From assembly GCF_000211815.1 (NCBI RefSeq), contig NZ_GL890973.1, positions 39,777 through 103,776 of the forward strand: DNA of 64,000 bases. Reading direction: 5' to 3'. Position 1 is the stretch's first letter. Every line of letters starts with the position of its first letter. Shown here in pieces: positions 49,450 through 63,556 of this stretch. The notes beneath the pieces were generated by a model. That model had not been told where the DNA came from. It searched no databases and worked only from the letters and a program-made list of their open reading frames with translations. A program made the translations under genes and the position numbers. Source of the DNA: Moorena producens 3L. Its GTDB lineage: Bacteria; Cyanobacteriota; Cyanobacteriia; Cyanobacteriales; Coleofasciculaceae.

Positions 49450-49837
49450 TAGGGAAAGCGGGGATGAAATGGTTTTCTAGTGACATACTCCCGACGCTGA
49501 CAAGCACGGTACAGCGCGGGCTTCATTAAACTAAGCCAGTGAGTCACCTCTGACTCGTCTTCAAAAACGTACGTGATACTTTCGCATCATACGGCTCATC
49601 ATTACAGTACAATCCTTGACATTGGCTCCTCTAGAACGGATTTTCATCTAACTCTTTTGAGTTGGTTTTGCTTCCGTGTTTGGCATCATGGCAATGTAGG
49701 TGTAATAATTCGAGATTTTTGTCTGAATTATTTCCATCCAGTGCGCGTGGTATTATATGGTGCTTTTCCAACAAATCTCCATCTCTGTTCGCGAAGCGTC
49801 GGCTACGCCGAAGGTAAGACCACTGCGGAGTGCATTT

Positions 49838-50735: not shown

Positions 50736-50993
50736 TTTGTTAAATTTACCGAATGTAACCGTGTTCACTTCTTATAAAAAAGAATAATTTATAATATTGA
50801 ATTTGGATTTATTAAATGAAGTAATTAACTGTCCTAAGTGTCAAATTTATACGAATGACATTAATCAAAATCGACCAATTTTAGTGCGAGATTTATCCAT
50901 ATAGCGCTTTTTAGCCTCATCAGGTACACATATTTTTTTCCCTCTTCCCTCTTCCCTCTTCCCTGCTCCCTGCTTCCTGCTCCCTAAAACCTT

Positions 50994-51039
50994 AGGTGCG
51001 CTTTCCGTTGGCGAATTAAATTCGCCACGGGTCGCACCT
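50994..51039. repeat. Nested palindromic element, copy 4 (AGGTGCGCTTTCCGT-TGGCGAATTAAATTCGCCA-CGGGTCGCACCT)
   Basis: The inner 19-bp segment is a perfect palindrome; the outer GGTGCG/CGCACC arms also pair. Confidence 0.75.
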
Positions 51040-51094
51040 CAAAAACTTGTACCTTACTAGATTAAAAACCGCTATATGTGGGCAAGGAGTATAC

Positions 51095-52028: not shown

Positions 52029-52100
52029 AGCGGGTGATCGGACTCGAACCGACGACGTTCAGCTTGGGAAGCTGACATTCTACCACTGAATTACACCCGC
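52029..52100 (-). tRNA. tRNA-Gly (anticodon CCC)
   Basis: Reverse strand: GCGGGTGTAATTCAGTGGTAGAATGTCAGCTTCCCAAGCTGAACGTCGTCGGTTCGAGTCCGATCACCCGCT. 7-bp acceptor stem, anticodon stem TCAGC/GCTGA with loop TTCCCAA, T-loop GTTCGAGTC. Confidence 0.9.
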
Positions 52101-55029: not shown

Positions 55030-55185
55030 ATGCAGCGCATCCCTATTACCTATTACCTATTACCTATTACCTATTACCTATTACCTATTACCTATTACCT
55101 ATTACCTATTACCTATTACCTATTACCTATTACCTATTACCTATTACCTATTACCTATTACCTATTACCTATTACCTATTACCTA
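55030..55185. repeat. Heptamer tandem repeat (CCTATTA)n, about 21 copies, followed by the palindrome TACCTCATAGCTATGAG
   Basis: Direct reading of the sequence. Confidence 0.9.
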
Positions 55186-55446
55186 AAATCCCGAAATTTT
55201 GTACCTCATAGCTATGAGAAGTGCTATAAATAATAGTAATACTGGCTAGTTGCTGTTAGGATTTTGCGCTCCAATTAATTTTAACAGAGTACTAGTTTTG
55301 GCGACGATAAAGACTTTAAAAAAGACCTAGTTTTGATAAAAAAAATATTTTTTGTTTCTTTATAAGAATCGACAATTCCTTGTCTGTTTCTTTACAGTCC
55401 ATGTGGCAAGACAGTACCAGTTAGAAGAGACATAGGGACTGCGGAC

Positions 55447-57472: not shown

Positions 57473-58225
57473 TCACTGAGGGAAATCACCGAACTGTTCT
57501 CGATAACGAGCTAACAATGACTCCATTTGAGCTAATTGCTCCTGAGCTTGTTGCTTTTGCTGACATTCTTGTTCGGCTCGTTGCTTTTCGAGTTCGGCTG
57601 CTTCAGTAGGGGCAGGAACTAGTTGTCCTTCTGGAGTAAACCAACGTAATTTTGAGTCATAAATTCCCAAATATAGTGCCAACTGTTGACTCCACAACCA
57701 ACCTTCTTGATTAGGCTCAAGTTCGAGATAACAACCATCTACCAAGTGGAAGCCCTTTAATTCCAGGGTGTTGGGGTCAAACCAGAAATAGTCGGGAGTA
57801 CGGAATGTATCCTGGTAGATTTGCTTCTTTAATCCTCGGTCCGTATCTGCTGTGGTAGGGGAAATAATTTCTACAATCACATTCGGATACTTCCCCTCTT
57901 CTTGCCACACTACCCAACTGTTCCGAGGTTTGCGCTCAGTTCCCAGCACCACAAAAAAGTCAGGCCCACGAAATTCTTCAGACTTACGTTGTCGAGGACT
58001 GTAATAAATAGTCAGATTTCCCGAGACATAGAAATCATCACGCTCATCCCACAACCACTCTAGGCATTGGATGAGTAGGGTCATTTGTAGTCGATGTAGA
58101 TCAGTTTCCAAAGGTGGTTCGTCACTGAATAAATCCCTAGGGGGAAATATAACATCTTCCGGTACAGTTGTTGCCTTTTCTGTTGGCGTTTCTGTTGCCG
58201 TTTTTAATTCTTGAGTCAAAGACAT
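57473..58225 (-). CDS. Uma2-family (DUF820) endonuclease-like protein with a Q/E-rich coiled-coil C-terminus
   Basis: Paralog of 1014-1892 (shared motifs DFFVVLG, NVIVEIISP, C-terminal ...QRAEQECQQKQQAQEQ). Confidence 0.8.
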   Translation of the reverse strand: MSLTQELKTATETPTEKATTVPEDVIFPPRDLFSDEPPLETDLHRLQMTLLIQCLEWLWDERDDFYVSGNLTIYYSPRQRKSEEFRGPDFFVVLGTERKPRNSWVVWQEEGKYPNVIVEIISPTTADTDRGLKKQIYQDTFRTPDYFWFDPNTLELKGFHLVDGCYLELEPNQEGWLWSQQLALYLGIYDSKLRWFTPEGQLVPAPTEAAELEKQRAEQECQQKQQAQEQLAQMESLLARYREQFGDFPQ

Positions 58226-58640
58226 GGCGGCTAGGGTACAATAAGTAGGTAGTACTTATTAGTCTATAGCCATTTAATTTTTTTGTGCACCATTTTTATA
58301 ATTAACTGATCTGCCAATCGCTAGATCTAGTCAAGTAATATCTGAACAAATTGGAAAAATTATCAATCTCTGATCGCAACCATTCAGATAATAAATGTTC
58401 ACAGCGTTTTTCATAACTATCAGGTACACCTGTTTCCTTTGCTATAGCTGATAGCTGATAGCTGATAATTTAGCATTCACTTTTTTTTATACTAAAATTA
58501 CCCCCGGAAAAAAAATTTATAAAAACCCTTGACAATTATAAATATAATCATTACAATAATCATTGTAAGCGATGCAGCGCGGTCTTGGGGGTTTCCCCCA
58601 TGAGCGACTGCATCAAGACAACGAAATTTAGTTTTTAGCC

Positions 58641-58850
58641 ATGTCTACAGAATTTATTCCGAATCACAACAATAATCCCAAGAAACAACGTATTAAGTAC
58701 ATTAAGGGCTCTCCTGAAGCAGTAACCAAAACTATTTACGGCCTTTGCGCACTCGGGTATGGGTCGGTTTCCGACTGGAGCCCTTTGCAACCGACGGGCA
58801 TTCCGGGGCAAGTAATTAGTTTTGCAACCAAGTATCAAACTTGGCGTTAA
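58641..58850 (+). CDS. Small hypothetical protein (69 aa), flanked by palindromes and followed by a rho-independent terminator
   Basis: ORF track; GC-rich palindromes at 58565-58612 and 58861-58885; terminator at 58945-58984. The antisense ORF 58635-58838 is considered the spurious one of the pair. Confidence 0.35.
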   Translation: MSTEFIPNHNNNPKKQRIKYIKGSPEAVTKTIYGLCALGYGSVSDWSPLQPTGIPGQVISFATKYQTWR

Positions 58851-58944: not shown

Positions 58945-58984
58945 TACAGTATTGAAATAGCCGTGGATAGTATTTCTACGGCTA
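58945..58984 (+). terminator. Rho-independent terminator (stem AAATAGCCGT/ACGGCTATTT plus T-run)
   Basis: Perfect 10-bp stem followed by TTTTTTTTT. Confidence 0.5.
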
Positions 58985-58995
58985 TTTTTTTTTGT

Positions 58996-59205
58996 AAGCT
59001 ATCAGCTTAAGCGCTACGCGCACGCTACGCGAACAGCTATCAGCTATCAGCTATCAGCTTAAGCGCTACGCGCACGCTACGCGAACAGCTATCAGCTATC
59101 AGCTATCAGCTTAAGCGCTACGCGCACGCTACGCGAACAGCTATCAGCTATCAGCTATCAGCTTAAGCGCTACGCGCACGCTACGCGAACAGCTATCAGC
59201 TATCA
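58996..59205. repeat. 52-bp tandem direct repeat, about 4 copies (CTTAAGCGCTACGCGCACGCTACGCGAACAG plus (CTATCAG)x3)
   Basis: Direct reading; units are identical with no unique spacers. Confidence 0.85.
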
Positions 59206-59302
59206 GCTTATGATTGGGGCTACACCTATGGTGGGCAGTGCCTAGTAACGGGCTTTGTCAGCTGATTTGTATCAAGCACTGCCCACCCTACATGAACTAA
59301 AA

Positions 59303-59575
59303 TCAATTAAATTGATCGTAATGACCACCTATTGCAAAAATATAAACATAGTTATCATCAAATTTGTAAATAAGGCGATCTTTTTGAGAAATTATTCTTG
59401 ACCACAACCCCGATAAATTATGTTTTAACGGTTCAGGTTTTCCCATTCCTTTACCGGGATCGTCTCTCAGCATTTCTTTGATGATTTTACAAAGGGTTTG
59501 ATGGAGTTTTTTGTCTTTTTTACGAAGTTCTTCGTAATTTTCCCAAGTTTTGCCCTCAAATACTAAGGATATCAT
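59303..59575 (-). CDS. yoeB: YoeB/Txe-family toxin (type II TA system)
   Basis: 90 aa; motifs ...KPEPLKHNLSGLWSRIISQKDRLIYKFDDNYVYIFAIGGHY. Confidence 0.85.
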   Translation of the reverse strand: MISLVFEGKTWENYEELRKKDKKLHQTLCKIIKEMLRDDPGKGMGKPEPLKHNLSGLWSRIISQKDRLIYKFDDNYVYIFAIGGHYDQFN

Positions 59576-59828
59576 CTAGTTCTTCCTGATTGGGAGAGTA
59601 GCCTTTATTTTGGGTATGGGTAGCTTGAGAATGGTTAATCTGTTCCATTAAATGGCTATTTTGTAATACATACAAGGTTTCTTGTTGTTGTTCCAAATCT
59701 TCGGCACTAATAATAATAAAGTATCCCTGATTGGGATCGGTTATTTTGAGGGTAGTATGGTGATTGATGACTTGTTTAATAAAGTCTTGGATGTTAGTTT
59801 TAAATTGCTTGATAGGGATAGAGTTCAC
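59556..59828 (-). CDS. yefM: YefM/Phd-family antitoxin (GTG start at 59826-59828 preceded by GAGGAAAAAATC; the track ORF has an extra 11 codons)
   Basis: VNSIPIKQFKTNIQDFIKQVINHHTTLKITDPNQGYFIIISAEDLEQQQETLYVLQNS is typical YefM. A 20-nt overlap with yoeB is typical TA coupling. Confidence 0.75.
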   Translation of the reverse strand: MNSIPIKQFKTNIQDFIKQVINHHTTLKITDPNQGYFIIISAEDLEQQQETLYVLQNSHLMEQINHSQATHTQNKGYSPNQEELDDILSI

Positions 59829-60590
59829 GATTTTTTCCTCATTTATACTTAAGTATAGCAAGTTAATATAGCGGTTTTAAATTAGGTGAGGTAAAAGTTT
59901 GTTGGTGTTAGGGAGCAGGGAGCAGGGAGCAGGGAGCAGTAAAGCCAGAAGAGGGAAGAGAGAAAAAATTATCTGTACCTGATTAGGTAACAAAGCGCTA
60001 TATTTGCTTGAGTTAGTTGTATGCATTCATCTCAAGTCGGGTTGAATACTCATAATAAAAGTTGATCGAAGGCAAAGGGCAGAAGGCAGCTTTGCTGAAG
60101 TAAAAGAATAAGGTTTCAAGGGAATGGTGCGATGGGCTACGCGCAGCCAAAGGCGATTGATCTTAGGTCAAGCTTCGCGATGAAGCGTTCGTAAAGCGTG
60201 GCCCAAAGGCCTCAGCTTCCGCTAAATGCGATCGCTTTTAGGGGTTCCAAAGGAGCATCGCAACGGTGACACGGCAGCAAGGTTGTGAGTAGAGCCTATG
60301 TGCCCACTATGATGTAAACCTAAGAGTTTTTTTCTTATCAAATAAAATTATGATTTTTTTCTCTTATCAAATAAAATTTTGGCTCTTTTTACTCTCTTGC
60401 TTTTTGCGTCTTGCTTCCATCACTTTTACTACAACCAGTGTATTGACATTCTAGATACAAACACTATAGTAGTTTATAGGAATAAGCTAGGCAGCATTTA
60501 CCTTAAAATAAAATGATTTGTGATAATTTTTGTTTCCTAATTCCAATTGCCTTTCCTATATATATCGTTTTTCATAACTATGAGGTACAT

Positions 60591-60639
60591 AGGTGCGCTT
60601 TCCGTTGGTGACTTAAATTTACCAACAGAAAGCGCACCT
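60591..60639. repeat. Nested palindromic element, copy 6 (AGGTGCGCTTTC-CGTTGGTGACTTAAATTTACCAACAG-AAAGCGCACCT), immediately upstream of the ORF at 60648
   Basis: Perfect 11-bp outer arms. Confidence 0.75.
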
Positions 60640-60647
60640 TTACAAAT

Positions 60648-61097
60648 ATGAAATGCATCCCACTATTAACGGTTGACATGACCACAAATAAAAAAACGAT
60701 AAACCCACAAAAACCCAGTAGGAAAACTCAAGGTGTAACACAATTATCAACTAGACCAAAAACAAGGTCTGGGAAGGTTATTAATGAACTGCTTATCAAC
60801 ATTTGGGAGCCCTTGGATCAGCTTGGAAAAGCTTTAATAGGTGACCTCTGGCGAGATGTCTATTTAACAATTCAGGATGCCATTGGTCTTGGGATCCTAT
60901 ACGTTATTTTCGGCTGGATATTTCATTGGATAACTAAAGAAAATTTTACAAGCTTTGATCAATGTTGGAATACCTGGAGCGTTTGGGAAGTAAACCGCTA
61001 CTTCTGCCTTGTTGTTGTTTTGTTAGCTTTTAGCTCCTGTATTACCTTATGTGGTCGAATCCTCAAACGCTTATTAAAAGATATGATTAATCTATGA
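60648..61097 (+). CDS. Hypothetical membrane protein (149 aa, 2 predicted TM helices), AT-rich
   Basis: ORF track; hydrophobic stretches LGILYVIFGWIFHWI and FCLVVVLLAFSSCITLCG; no recognisable domain. Confidence 0.45.
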   Translation: MKCIPLLTVDMTTNKKTINPQKPSRKTQGVTQLSTRPKTRSGKVINELLINIWEPLDQLGKALIGDLWRDVYLTIQDAIGLGILYVIFGWIFHWITKENFTSFDQCWNTWSVWEVNRYFCLVVVLLAFSSCITLCGRILKRLLKDMINL

Positions 61098-61113
61098 CGC
61101 TATAACTAAGTTA

Positions 61114-62256
61114 GTGAATATGTCTACAGTTAAACGCGAAGAAATTAGTCTCTACCAAGAAGCCAAAGCTAGTTTAAGTTCCCTGTTTTGGCAAACAGCC
61201 CAAGTCTTTACTAGTTTACTAGTAATATTCTTGTTCGCTGGTGGCAAACCTCCCGGTTGGTTAGTCACCACCAGCTTTGTCGTCGGTACTGTATTTGTTT
61301 TTTGGAGAGAAAACAAGCGAACTAAGGATGGATCAAGTGAACATAAACAAATAAATAATAACGAGCATAAACCAAACAAATCTATGGTTCCCACTTATAA
61401 GAGTTACAAGCAAAGGAAAGCTAATCAAGTTCTGAGACGATCAATTGCAGAGAAAGAAACTACTATAGATGACCAGAGTGATGCCAAGTTTAACGCTAGT
61501 GCTAACTACTTCGAAAAAGCTGATTATGTTAGTAGTGAACAAAGCTATGCTAAGCAAACTAATATGGATAGAGACTCGAAAATACAGAAATGGCAAAACT
61601 ATTTTAATTTTGCATTAATTATAATCATTTTTACGGCACCACTATTTACTTTTGGAATCAAAGAATTGGGGAAAAAAAATTATAAAATATATAAAAATAA
61701 TCAAGGAATGATTGCTGAAATAAATAGTAAACCTCTTGTTTATTCTTCTCCAGTAATTTCACAAATTCCGACAGATGATAACCCTGAAAAAACTCAAAAA
61801 TTATCTAAATCAGTTGAACCCCAACTAGTTGAACCTATAGAAGTTGAAAATAAAGGTATTATATATAATTTTAAAAATTGCCAAAAATCCTTAAATGTAA
61901 ATTCAAGTACTCAATCCATAAGTTGTGCTATATTAATTACAAGCACTAAAGAAAATGTTCAGTTGCGTTTATATTCCAATCGCACTTCTTCTCAAAGAAG
62001 TAGACTATTGGATCAAGGTAAAGAATATGTAGCCACAAAAGTTGAATTTGGTACATACAGTAGTAATCGCATAGGTTATGTAAAAAATAGCTTGATTAAG
62101 GATGTACCGATAGAAGCCATTATTGATTTTGATGGAGTTCCACTAGAATTAAACCAGATAGATATCCTGCAATTTACATCCTATTTAGAGAGTTCTTATT
62201 ACAAAGGTAAACTCAATACTGAATTACGTAATTTGCCGGTTATTCCGGAAAAATAG
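61114..62256 (+). CDS. Hypothetical membrane protein (380 aa; N-terminal TM hairpin, Lys/Asn-rich low-complexity region, third TM helix, roughly 170-aa C-terminal domain), AT-rich
   Basis: ORF track; begins 17 nt after the previous ORF (operon-like); no recognisable domain. Confidence 0.5.
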   Translation: MNMSTVKREEISLYQEAKASLSSLFWQTAQVFTSLLVIFLFAGGKPPGWLVTTSFVVGTVFVFWRENKRTKDGSSEHKQINNNEHKPNKSMVPTYKSYKQRKANQVLRRSIAEKETTIDDQSDAKFNASANYFEKADYVSSEQSYAKQTNMDRDSKIQKWQNYFNFALIIIIFTAPLFTFGIKELGKKNYKIYKNNQGMIAEINSKPLVYSSPVISQIPTDDNPEKTQKLSKSVEPQLVEPIEVENKGIIYNFKNCQKSLNVNSSTQSISCAILITSTKENVQLRLYSNRTSSQRSRLLDQGKEYVATKVEFGTYSSNRIGYVKNSLIKDVPIEAIIDFDGVPLELNQIDILQFTSYLESSYYKGKLNTELRNLPVIPEK

Positions 62257-62449
62257 AAATTATCTAATTTACAAATAGGTTATAGCGGTTTTTAATTAGG
62301 TGAGGTACAAATTTTAGGGTTTTAGGGAACAGTGGCGTAGGGTGCGTGATAAGACGGGCTCCCCTTGATTTTCCCCCTGTTGACATCGGTTGAGATAGCC
62401 CGGCCCGTAACGCACCACCGGGTCAAACTAGAGATCCTTCCCCCTTGCC

Positions 62450-63061
62450 TCAGCGCAACCCTATAAATAATTTGTCTGTAGATATCTTAAGATTAGTAAA
62501 AAGCGAAGATTTGAGACAATCCCCTCTACGGAACATTACTTTCTGATATTGATCATTTACCAAACAGCAGACCGTTACCGTCGGTTGTTTCGGGCTACCA
62601 ATAAAATATTTTCCGCCAATACCGAGATAATCGACAATCCAGTATTCTGGAATGCCCAAAGCTTCGTAATCTTCATACTTACGAGCATAATCATTCTGCC
62701 AGTTTGTACTAACGACTTCAACCACAAGTTTTACAGTAGTACCCAGAGTTATAACTGGTTCCCTTGCCCAAAGTGGTTCGTTGACCAATTCTCCCTCATC
62801 AAGGACAACAAGATCTGGTCTGAAAGCGTTGAAGGTTCCCAAGGGCTGAATTAAACAGCGGTGTGGGATAAAATAAGGTACATCTAAACGATCTATTTCT
62901 ACGTTAAGCTTTCGGCTAATCAACGCCACGACTTGCTCGTGGGGGCCAGTTGGTTCCATCTCAATTAGCTCTCCATCAATGAGTTCGTACCGTTGATCGT
63001 CTCCATACTGAGCAATAAATTCTTCTGGACTGATACCGGTTGTGGTTGCTGATAAAATCAT
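62450..63061 (-). CDS. Uma2-family (DUF820) endonuclease-like protein
   Basis: Family motifs (RYELIDGELIEMEPTGPHEQVVALI, FRPDLVVL, VVEVVS); 203 aa. Confidence 0.8.
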   Translation of the reverse strand: MILSATTTGISPEEFIAQYGDDQRYELIDGELIEMEPTGPHEQVVALISRKLNVEIDRLDVPYFIPHRCLIQPLGTFNAFRPDLVVLDEGELVNEPLWAREPVITLGTTVKLVVEVVSTNWQNDYARKYEDYEALGIPEYWIVDYLGIGGKYFIGSPKQPTVTVCCLVNDQYQKVMFRRGDCLKSSLFTNLKISTDKLFIGLR

Positions 63062-63308
63062 AGAGCGGTCTCCTACTAAAACCTTACTGTTATCAACACC
63101 TAACTAAAATGTAAGCTATCAGCTTATGCGCTACTTGAGGTGCTTTTGAATAAAACAGGTAAGCATTGCTTTAATCTGAGTTAAGCCACAGCATCGTTCG
63201 CACAGCGTGGCCGTTCGCGTAGCGTGGCCAAAAGGCCAAAAGGCCAAGGCCAAAGCCTGTGCCACGGCTGACAGCTGAACACTGACAGCATGAACATTTG
63301 GATTGATG

Positions 63309-63556
63309 CCCAACTGCCTCCAACATTAGCAACAAGCCCTTGGGTGGTGCGTTACGGGACGGGCTATTTCAATACTAGCGCTAGGTTTTAACATGAGGGC
63401 AAGCCCGCCCCTAACTCACCCTACGCACGACGCACGACTGCCTCCAACATTAGCAGCGAGCCCTTGGGTGGTGCGTTACGGGACGGGCTATTTCAACACT
63501 AGCGCTAGGTTTTAACATGAGGGCAAGCCCGCCCCTAACTCACCCTACGCACTATC
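63309..63556. repeat. 124-bp tandem direct repeat x2, with an inverted partial copy at 62330-62425 on the other side of the Uma2 gene
   Basis: The two units are nearly identical (CTGCCTCCAACATTAGCA(A/G)C(A/G)AGCCCTTGGGTGGTGCGTTACGGGACGGGCTATTTCAA...GGGCAAGCCCGCCCCTAACTCACCCTACGCAC). The reverse complement matches GTAGGGTGCGTG...ATAGCCCGGCCCGTAACGCACCACC at 62340-62420. Confidence 0.8.

Follow-up and report, generated by a model that had tools for sequence, protein, structure and literature searches.

A probable chimeric copy of a cyanobacteria-wide membrane-protein gene pair in Moorena producens 3L

Two adjacent membrane-protein genes in the window

Moorena is a marine filamentous cyanobacterium. 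In a 64,000-nucleotide stretch of the Moorena producens 3L genome (contig NZ_GL890973.1, positions 39,777 to 103,776; hereafter the window), we analyzed two adjacent open reading frames (ORFs), which an earlier note had described as an AT-rich membrane-protein cassette bounded by direct repeats, in a context typical of horizontally acquired islets. The two ORFs were present as that note gave them, at 60648-61097 (ORF1) and 61114-62256 (ORF2). Homologues supported slightly later starts, at 60678 for ORF1 (139 aa) and 61120 for ORF2 (378 aa). The tight spacing was confirmed, with a gap of 22 nt between the homologue-supported frames. The features of the locus are listed in Table 1.

A comparison of GC content confirmed the AT-richness. 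ORF2 had the lowest GC content (32.5%, with 24% at third codon positions, GC3) of the 32 window ORFs of at least 150 aa, which had a mean of 44.8% (sd 3.5), and the GC content of ORF1 was 37.1%. The low GC of ORF2 sat mainly in its middle and C-terminal parts (about 30%, GC3 about 20%). Stand-alone paralogues of this part of ORF2, which are specific to Moorena, were likewise AT-rich (about 35% GC), and the low GC is therefore more likely a family trait than a sign of recent import.

Table 1. Features in and around the ORF1-ORF2 locus (positions in the window)
Feature	Position	Strand	Remarks
Gene A (ORF1), 139 aa	60678-61097 (alternative start 60648)	+	Homologue-supported start
Constant module B, first 107 codons of ORF2	61120-61441	+	Starts MSTVKREEISLYQEAKA; hairpin of two transmembrane (TM) helices
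Pentapeptide-protein remnant, 41 codons, SIAEKETT...YAKQTN	61442-61562	+	In frame; ORF2 residues 108-148
Body of Moorena paralogue family, first part	61564-61845	+	TM3 (61603-61659), coiled coil, Pro/Ser-rich linker
C-terminal immunoglobulin (Ig)-like beta-sandwich, 136 aa, and stop codon	61846-62256	+	Two invariant Cys; probably extracytoplasmic
Promoter-like site TTGACA-16-TATAGT	60443-60470	+	11 of 12 positions fit the consensus; ~200 nt 5' of ORF1
Strong hairpin, 12 bp + 8 bp stem	60591-60639	+	Between promoter-like site and ORF1
Left direct repeat, complete element like a miniature inverted-repeat transposable element (MITE)	59866-59999		134 nt; inserted just upstream of yefM
Right direct repeat, second copy of the MITE-like family	62281-62466		First 52 nt align with left copy
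Third MITE-like copy, diverged	50900-51076	Opposite orientation	Copy of the hairpin element nested at 50994-51039
yoeB toxin gene	59303-59575	-	Pfam YoeB_toxin PF06769, 80.6 bits
yefM antitoxin gene	59556-59861	-	Pfam PhdYeFM_antitox PF02604, 42.5 bits
Promoter-like site for yefM	59852-59881	-	-35-like hexamer inside the inserted MITE-like element
Uma2-family gene	62450-63061	-	Pfam Uma2, 111 bits; PADLOC PDC-S03, E = 3e-84
Second Uma2-family gene	57473-58225	-	Pfam, above gathering score

Gene A and the constant module of B

The conserved unit at this locus is ORF1 together with the first ~107 codons of ORF2, not ORF1 together with the whole of ORF2. About 800 bp of the window (~60640-61441) were 81-86% identical in nucleotide sequence to three other Moorena loci, while the flanks and the tails were unrelated. 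In other Moorena assemblies, the gene containing this module (gene B) began 10-22 nt downstream of the homologue of ORF1 (gene A). The B proteins of the Moorena loci shared an N-terminus of ~72-107 residues, MSxVKREEISLYEEAKAGLSSLFWQ...WRENKRTKD.

The product of gene A starts with a basic, disordered segment; an amphipathic helix follows, and then two TM helices (~60879-60935 and 60999-61055), which are separated by a loop of ~21 residues with a conserved Cys. A structural model of A built from a Moorena-only alignment was of modest confidence (core pLDDT ~72) and showed the same layout. Gene B opens with a constant hairpin of ~72 residues: in module B, TM1 (61183-61239), a GGxPPG turn and TM2 (~61255-61305) are followed by the basic segment WRENKRTKD. 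From charge and hydropathy, both ends of A and both ends of the B hairpin were predicted to be cytoplasmic. Comparison of A with B by hhalign showed no homology, and the two are therefore not a paralogous pair.

A profile of ORF1 relatives retrieved 37 metagenome loci. When hidden Markov models of A and of the hairpin were applied, B was found directly 3' of A in the 37 metagenome loci and in loci L005-L008 and L012-L016. The sole exception among loci with 3' sequence was that of Moorena bouillonii (L001), where B follows A only after an insertion sequence (IS); in L033, L045 and L050 no B was seen, and the contig ends there. A and B were co-oriented, with an overlap of up to ~50 nt (typically ~20) or a gap of up to ~20 nt. 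The pair was present in Moorena, Microcystis, Planktothrix/Aerosakkonema, Microcoleus and Nostocaceae, and the Microcystis copies lay on 304 contigs. All members from named taxa were annotated as "hypothetical protein". The HIP1 octamer, which is cyanobacterial, was strongly enriched in nearly all loci with the pair. A word-indexed protein search missed the fusions to NACHT and pentapeptide proteins and, with the hairpin profile, even the query itself; because such obvious relatives were missed, the counts from that search are lower bounds.

A distant A/B pair followed by a pentapeptide gene was seen at L012 (1-10246; also at L013 and L014), among genes for a PriCT_2/AAA_25 primase-like protein, a Terminase_2 small terminase, a Peptidase_S78 prohead protease, an HTH protein and an integrase. 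On its HIP1-rich cyanobacterial contig, this looks like a small integrated phage-satellite-like element.

Exchangeable tails of B

The part of B that follows the hairpin differed from locus to locus. In Moorena, the tails were a NACHT protein (744 aa in all, L005), a pentapeptide-repeat membrane protein (815 aa, L007 and L008) and a stump (144 aa, L006). Pentapeptide repeats were found in 18 of the 39 B proteins, and one B protein each carried REC-GGDEF-EAL, PAS (PAS_3), GerE/LuxR HTH, NACHT and CyanoTRADDas_TM domains. The last of these, in the tail of the L037 B protein, was a full-length match to PF20712 (54 bits). Among the remaining B proteins were several with coiled coils or with no recognisable domain, and some B proteins were the hairpin alone (78-81 aa). 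In the near-identical contigs L038-L042 and L052 (for example L038 858-2123), the only difference lay in the number of pentapeptide repeats in B (401, 421, 431 or 446 aa), which suggests rapid variation in repeat number within one population.

These tails bear on one explanation in which the pair is a membrane tether or signal-transduction module. Its four-helix unit would anchor cytoplasmic domains to the plasma or thylakoid membrane, and it may relay a signal about the state of the membrane to pentapeptide beta-helices, GGDEF-EAL, PAS or HTH domains. The REC-GGDEF-EAL, PAS_3 and GerE HTH tails fit this role, as does the predicted cytoplasmic position of both hairpin ends and hence of the tails, and the pair is chromosomal and widespread (as in Microcystis), with neighbour genes that are mostly housekeeping. 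However, the tails differed even between close relatives, down to repeat number; in a single genus, NACHT, pentapeptide and beta-sandwich bodies follow the module at separate loci; tail-less copies exist; and one tail is a TRADD-N-associated domain with two TM helices. Variation of this kind is seen more typically in conflict systems that diversify than in stable signalling pathways, and we regard the tether as possible but doubtful.

A further segment of ~80 C-terminal residues without a Pfam match was common to several B proteins and to other pentapeptide proteins (..AAAEIQ[QR]LLxQLxQTNP..G..A[IF][KE]E....P; L007 7600-7890, L020 5950-6189, L028 and L030 4250-4501).

The three parts of ORF2

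ORF2 residues 1-107 are the hairpin module and end in QVLRR, which corresponds to the beginning of the pentapeptide body of L007 and L002. The 41 codons that follow matched the pentapeptide gene of L006 (698 aa) in its 3' part, the C-terminal linker region, with an identity of 75% in nucleotide and 51% in amino acid sequence. From residue 149 to its end at 378, ORF2 is made up of the body of a single-pass membrane protein family that is confined to Moorena and had at least 17 database matches; in the window copy, ~35 coiled-coil residues are missing. Both junctions, at 61441/61442 and 61562/61564, were common to M. bouillonii, and the chimera therefore predates the split between M. producens and M. 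bouillonii. Paralogue P0005 had nearly the same C-terminal domain, and this similarity suggests that the domain was exchanged between loci. At a second conserved locus, paralogues of the ORF2 body stood alone with no A/B module (L003 5827-6786 and L004 5827-6792); by eye, the flanks there held a 95-aa DUF433-like ORF and a 161-aa TM2-domain-like ORF.

The structural model of ORF2 was confident only at the C-terminal domain, an all-beta sandwich (block-mean pLDDT mostly 73-87, with a dip to 51-57 at residues ~311-330). An exhaustive profile search retrieved 214 remote relatives of this domain, some of which were joined to parts of CsgG/FlgO-like lipoproteins, to trypsin-like or caspase peptidases, or to pentapeptide repeats. 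Since the hairpin ends are predicted to be cytoplasmic and TM3 follows, we infer that the beta-sandwich lies outside the membrane.

The ratio of nonsynonymous to synonymous substitution (dN/dS) in comparison with M. bouillonii was 0.32 for ORF1 and 0.36 for the beta-sandwich. The hairpin module, which had few changes, gave 0.62, and the TM3-linker segment gave 1.35. Gene A of M. bouillonii carries at its 3' end an IS4-type element (DDE_Tnp_1, 412 aa; L001 3999-5888), which truncates A and splits it from B. The 16 bp that correspond to window 61007-61022 are present on both sides of this element, a possible target duplication.

These data also bear on whether the window copy is a non-functional relic, with ORF2 an accidental in-frame deletion fusion that has stayed open by chance. 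The chimeric origin with two deletion junctions, the further loss in the coiled coil, the dN/dS values of the TM3-linker segment (1.35) and the hairpin module (0.62), and the truncation of A in M. bouillonii speak for a relic. However, none of the three deletions shifts the frame, the window genome has both ORFs intact and ORF2 is intact in both species, and the dN/dS values of ORF1 and the beta-sandwich (0.32 and 0.36) speak against a relic. In addition, with the predicted topology (three TM helices, C-terminus outside) the beta-sandwich keeps the side of the membrane that it has in the parental family, and a promoter-like site lies upstream of the pair. We regard a relic as rather unlikely.

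Comparison with known families and systems

Scans of ORF1 and ORF2 against Pfam, NCBIfam, PADLOC and PHROGs gave nothing meaningful, and PADLOC-DB 2.0 held no match to either ORF at E <= 1. Profile searches of PDB sequences found no significant match for A, the B hairpin or the beta-sandwich. No match to the A profile was found in viral contigs, and a tblastn search with one A homologue (L012) found none in 50,697 phage genomes or in plasmids. The published literature yielded organisational analogues and no description of the A/B pair. The view of the ORFs as a tightly coupled, compositionally atypical membrane-protein pair of no annotated family was upheld; the statement that the proteins have no recognisable domains held for Pfam, NCBIfam, PADLOC and PHROGs, but not for the C-terminus of ORF2, with its confident beta-sandwich and remote relatives.

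The closest organisational likeness was to EACC1 (PMC7159879), whose function is predicted. In both systems, a small conserved membrane-protein gene lies 5' of a gene whose product is constant at its N-terminus and hypervariable at its C-terminus, and the variable region sometimes contains TM helices followed by extracellular domains. The likeness is one of organisation only. EACC1 has one TM helix with a glycine patch, whereas gene A encodes two TM helices and gave no sequence match; the EACC1 partner has a caspase as its constant part, in contrast to module B, which is a hairpin of two TM helices with no peptidase; and EACC1 is mainly actinobacterial, whereas the A/B pair is cyanobacterial. 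Pfam showed no Peptidase_C14 or other enzymatic constant domain (caspase or cNMP cyclase) in the 39 B proteins.

The second analogue was the group of cyanobacterial TRADD-N proteins, in which the variable parts include pentapeptide repeats, STAND NTPases, PAS and HTH (PMC7159879, PMC8195603; Kaur et al. 2020/2021). The B family shows the same variable C-terminal set, and the L037 B protein ends in PF20712. However, Pfam gave no match to the TRADD-N domain (RRM-fold) in A or B, the constant region consists of two TM helices embedded in the membrane, and the partner is separately encoded. The B hairpin itself had no detectable similarity to PF20712, including the CyanoTRADDas_TM segment of L037. 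Because the defining caspase and TRADD-N domains are absent, the A/B pair belongs to neither EACC1 nor TRADD-N.

Like SLATT two-TM effectors and class II holins, the B hairpin is a small two-helix hairpin with a charged segment, and it could perturb the membrane if oligomerised. In contrast to those proteins, it always accompanies gene A, has no PHROG match and lies in no nucleotide-signalling or lysis context; no SLATT match was found in Pfam at E <= 0.1 (ORF2) or 1e-4 (39 B proteins). This comparison touches a further explanation, that the two small membrane proteins are a holin/antiholin-like lysis cassette left by a prophage. With 78-81 aa, two TM helices and a tail that is basic, the stand-alone B proteins resemble holins, and the distant copy of L012-L014 lies among phage-like genes. 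However, that copy was the only one in a phage-like region, PHROGs, viral contigs and the phage genomes gave no matches, and endolysin families were not recurrent among the 25 commonest neighbour families listed. Most B proteins carry large cytoplasmic domains, and the loci are chromosomal and scattered, all of which makes a lysis cassette extremely improbable.

The beta-sandwich of ORF2 resembles DUF4352/MPT63-like Ig-fold lipoprotein domains (Bacillus subtilis YjhA, 3cfu, and YcdA, 4r4g) in general fold only. Pfam matches of its remote relatives to DUF5643 and DUF5067 were below the curated cut-offs.

Interpretation of the A/B pair

We consider it likely, with a probability of about 0.6, that the two ORFs represent a chimeric copy of an unannotated, cyanobacteria-wide A/B membrane pair that forms the constant membrane unit of a variable tail. 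The ancestral arrangement would have been gene A, B fused to a pentapeptide protein, and a beta-sandwich membrane protein, and two in-frame deletions in that arrangement would be the simplest history of the present ORF2. Together, A and the B hairpin would form a membrane unit of four helices, which would stay constant while its partner domain varies rapidly. This unit may act as a membrane-proximal sensor or as a membrane-perturbing output, with recognition or oligomerisation provided by the variable tail; in the window copy, the tail would put the beta-sandwich outside the membrane.

The layout of the pair is like that of the conflict systems described by Kaur et al. for multicellular bacteria, in which a constant membrane component goes with a hypervariable one. 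A conflict-type mechanism was considered because the organisation parallels that of EACC1 and TRADD-N proteins and because the L037 B protein carries PF20712. Tentatively, gene A and the B hairpin could make up the constant, membrane-embedded core of a conflict system that is new and spread across cyanobacteria, with a role in immunity, abortive infection or the recognition of self and non-self. The tail would sense an invader or a neighbour, and the four-helix unit would then open or disturb the membrane. Tails would be reshuffled between loci and with the TRADD-N network by recombination, the window being one such event. We favour a conflict-type role, although it is less likely than not, and a role in tethering or signalling is nearly as likely.

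Several points weigh against the view of the pair as a constant unit with a variable tail. The interaction between A and B is one that we infer, and A and the B hairpin had no detectable homology to a curated family, to a solved structure or to each other. The REC-GGDEF-EAL, PAS and LuxR-HTH tails are ordinary signalling domains that fit signalling or anchoring equally well. Because colonial, unicellular Microcystis carries the pair, the link to multicellularity is loose. The window copy, a deletion chimera with its ~35 coiled-coil residues lost and a linker dN/dS of 1.35, may be decaying, and in M. bouillonii the IS4-type element truncates A and parts it from B. Finally, among the 149 proteins of the A-B neighbourhoods, Uma2 (9/149) and pentapeptide (7/149) were the only recurrent families, and the rest were mostly housekeeping. 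Both of these families are abundant across cyanobacteria.

Should A and B work as a functional unit, the systems of constant core plus hypervariable partner, so far predicted mainly in multicellular bacteria, would gain an unannotated membrane module. The pair spans bloom-forming (Microcystis), mat-forming (Microcoleus) and natural-product-rich (Moorena) cyanobacteria. A functional pair would also give a context to many membrane-anchored cyanobacterial pentapeptide-repeat proteins, to our knowledge a large class whose function is mostly unknown, and would offer a simple two-gene target for phage-challenge or membrane-integrity work.

The flanking repeats are a dispersed MITE-like element

The direct repeats that had been thought to bracket the cassette were real and longer than first noted, covering 52 nt (59867-59918 and 62281-62332) with 85% identity. 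Their 27-nt core occurred exactly twice in the window, against none expected. The left repeat belongs to a complete element with outer inverted repeats TATAGCG/CGCTATA at its ends and, in its interior, inner inverted repeats GAGGTACA-like/TGTACCT around an (AGGGAGC)n heptamer core. The inverted-repeat pair of this element also accounted for the "nested palindrome" that had been described at the 5' edge of the region. M. bouillonii precisely lacked window 59866-59999, with an empty site in which GTTA is followed directly by ATATTT, and was otherwise collinear in the order ABC-transporter gene, Uma2, small ORF, yoeB-yefM, ORF1, ORF2, second Uma2 and onward. The left copy is thus a lineage-specific insertion that came later than the two genes.

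The right copy was common to M. producens and M. bouillonii. Beyond its first 52 nt, it was interrupted by part of another repeat, and its 3' end (~62466) was read by eye from the sequence. Related copies were found in unrelated Moorena loci (L004, two in L006, and L007), giving at least 7 copies over the window and the Moorena loci. The element therefore has the marks of a MITE: it is short, with terminal inverted repeats, dispersed copies and an empty site in L001. Its target-site duplication is ambiguous (TA or ATAT). It resembles cyanobacterial MITEs and STRR-type heptamer repeats in its size (~135 nt), terminal inverted repeats, dispersal, heptamer-repeat core and empty site in a sister species, but the family matched no named MITE or IS, and no cognate transposase was identified for it. 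Nezha-type elements are one known group of cyanobacterial MITEs.

Since the left copy is missing from the M. bouillonii locus, which carries both genes, the repeats do not mark the borders of a cassette. Attachment sites were rejected as an explanation of the repeats, the left copy being a separate insertion and the family dispersed; there was likewise no att-like island, M. bouillonii keeping the segment without the left repeat. MITE-like repeats can thus mimic cassette borders, a lesson for annotation, as is the three-part make-up of ORF2.

These results bear on the proposal that the two genes were acquired horizontally as a defence or abortive-infection islet that acts on the membrane against phage, with the repeats as insertion scars. 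For such an islet speak the low GC of the genes, the adjoining YefM/YoeB and Uma2 (PADLOC PDC-S03) genes, the locus content that varies among Moorena genomes, and the distant pair copy in the phage- or satellite-like element L012-L014 (primase, small terminase, prohead protease, integrase). However, the reading of the repeats as insertion scars was refuted by the M. bouillonii locus, where both genes are present without the 134-nt left insertion, and the repeat family is dispersed. Moreover, the conserved unit cuts through ORF2, and the AT-rich part is shared with AT-rich chromosomal paralogues at other loci. Composition is atypical, yet the genes are syntenic in M. bouillonii, and the content of the third Moorena genome (L002) differs at the locus. 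The horizontally acquired, repeat-bounded cassette was therefore not borne out, and the AT-richness is more likely a trait of a Moorena family. The suggestion of a defence-like context fared partly better, through the toxin-antitoxin pair, Uma2 (PDC-S03) and the NACHT, pentapeptide and TRADD-N-associated tails elsewhere, but PADLOC and PHROGs gave no match to the two genes, and the searches of viral contigs, phage genomes and plasmids with gene A sequences gave none either. An acquired islet of this kind is improbable.

The promoter-like site of yefM has its -35-like hexamer inside the MITE-like insertion, so that expression of yefM/yoeB may differ from that in M. bouillonii. The insertion may thus have changed toxin-antitoxin expression relative to that species.

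Hairpin upstream of ORF1

The hairpin at 60591-60639 was strong (dG -33.4 kcal/mol, z = -9.1). It was kept in M. bouillonii and missing upstream of the other Moorena A-B copies, and a related copy lay at 50994-51039, inside the third MITE-like copy. Because related copies occur elsewhere, both the MITE-like and the hairpin features are dispersed small genome repeats, and neither the flanking repeats nor this hairpin plays a part in the formation of the chimera. A role of the hairpin as a terminator was rejected, as it has no T-tract and is part of a repeated palindromic element; no terminator-like site was found in the ORF1-ORF2 region. The sequence CGTTTTTCATAACTATNAGGTACA occurs at 58405-58428, ~210 nt upstream of a 69-aa ORF, and at 60566-60589, just before the hairpin.

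Neighbouring genes and other repeats

The YefM/YoeB pair and the two Uma2 genes that had been reported alongside were confirmed, all above Pfam gathering scores. yefM and yoeB are adjacent with a 20-nt overlap, as in a type II toxin-antitoxin system, and in PADLOC the neighbouring Uma2 genes matched PDC-S03, a candidate defence family. In L002, the stretch between the same flanking genes holds a pentapeptide gene (543 aa) and, after it, an ordinary paralogue (340 aa), with no gene A, hairpin module, yefM/yoeB or Uma2.

The 69-aa ORF at 58641-58850 has no Pfam match; it was ~93% identical in nucleotide sequence in the L002 synteny, and the region is collinear with L001. Rfam and tRNA scans of the window found nothing near ORF1-ORF2, and only a fragment of a group II intron (catalytic-domain match at 49525-49599 on the minus strand, 46.9 bits) and tRNA-Gly(CCC) (52029-52100, minus strand) far off. 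The region ~47.6-52.5 kb has no long ORF and holds the third MITE-like copy (50900-51076). A 67-aa ORF of PITYYLL repeats at 55030-55233 is a translated heptamer tandem repeat and probably no gene.

A 52-nt unit with AGCTATC heptamers and a GC-rich segment is repeated ~5 times in tandem at 58945-59256, and related pieces lie at 58441-58467 (inverted) and 63110-63134. At 63305-63552 there are two tandem copies of a 124-nt unit with 95% identity, and a 31-nt inverted partial copy of this unit, at 62389-62419, lies inside the right MITE-like element, where it is the repeat that interrupts that copy.

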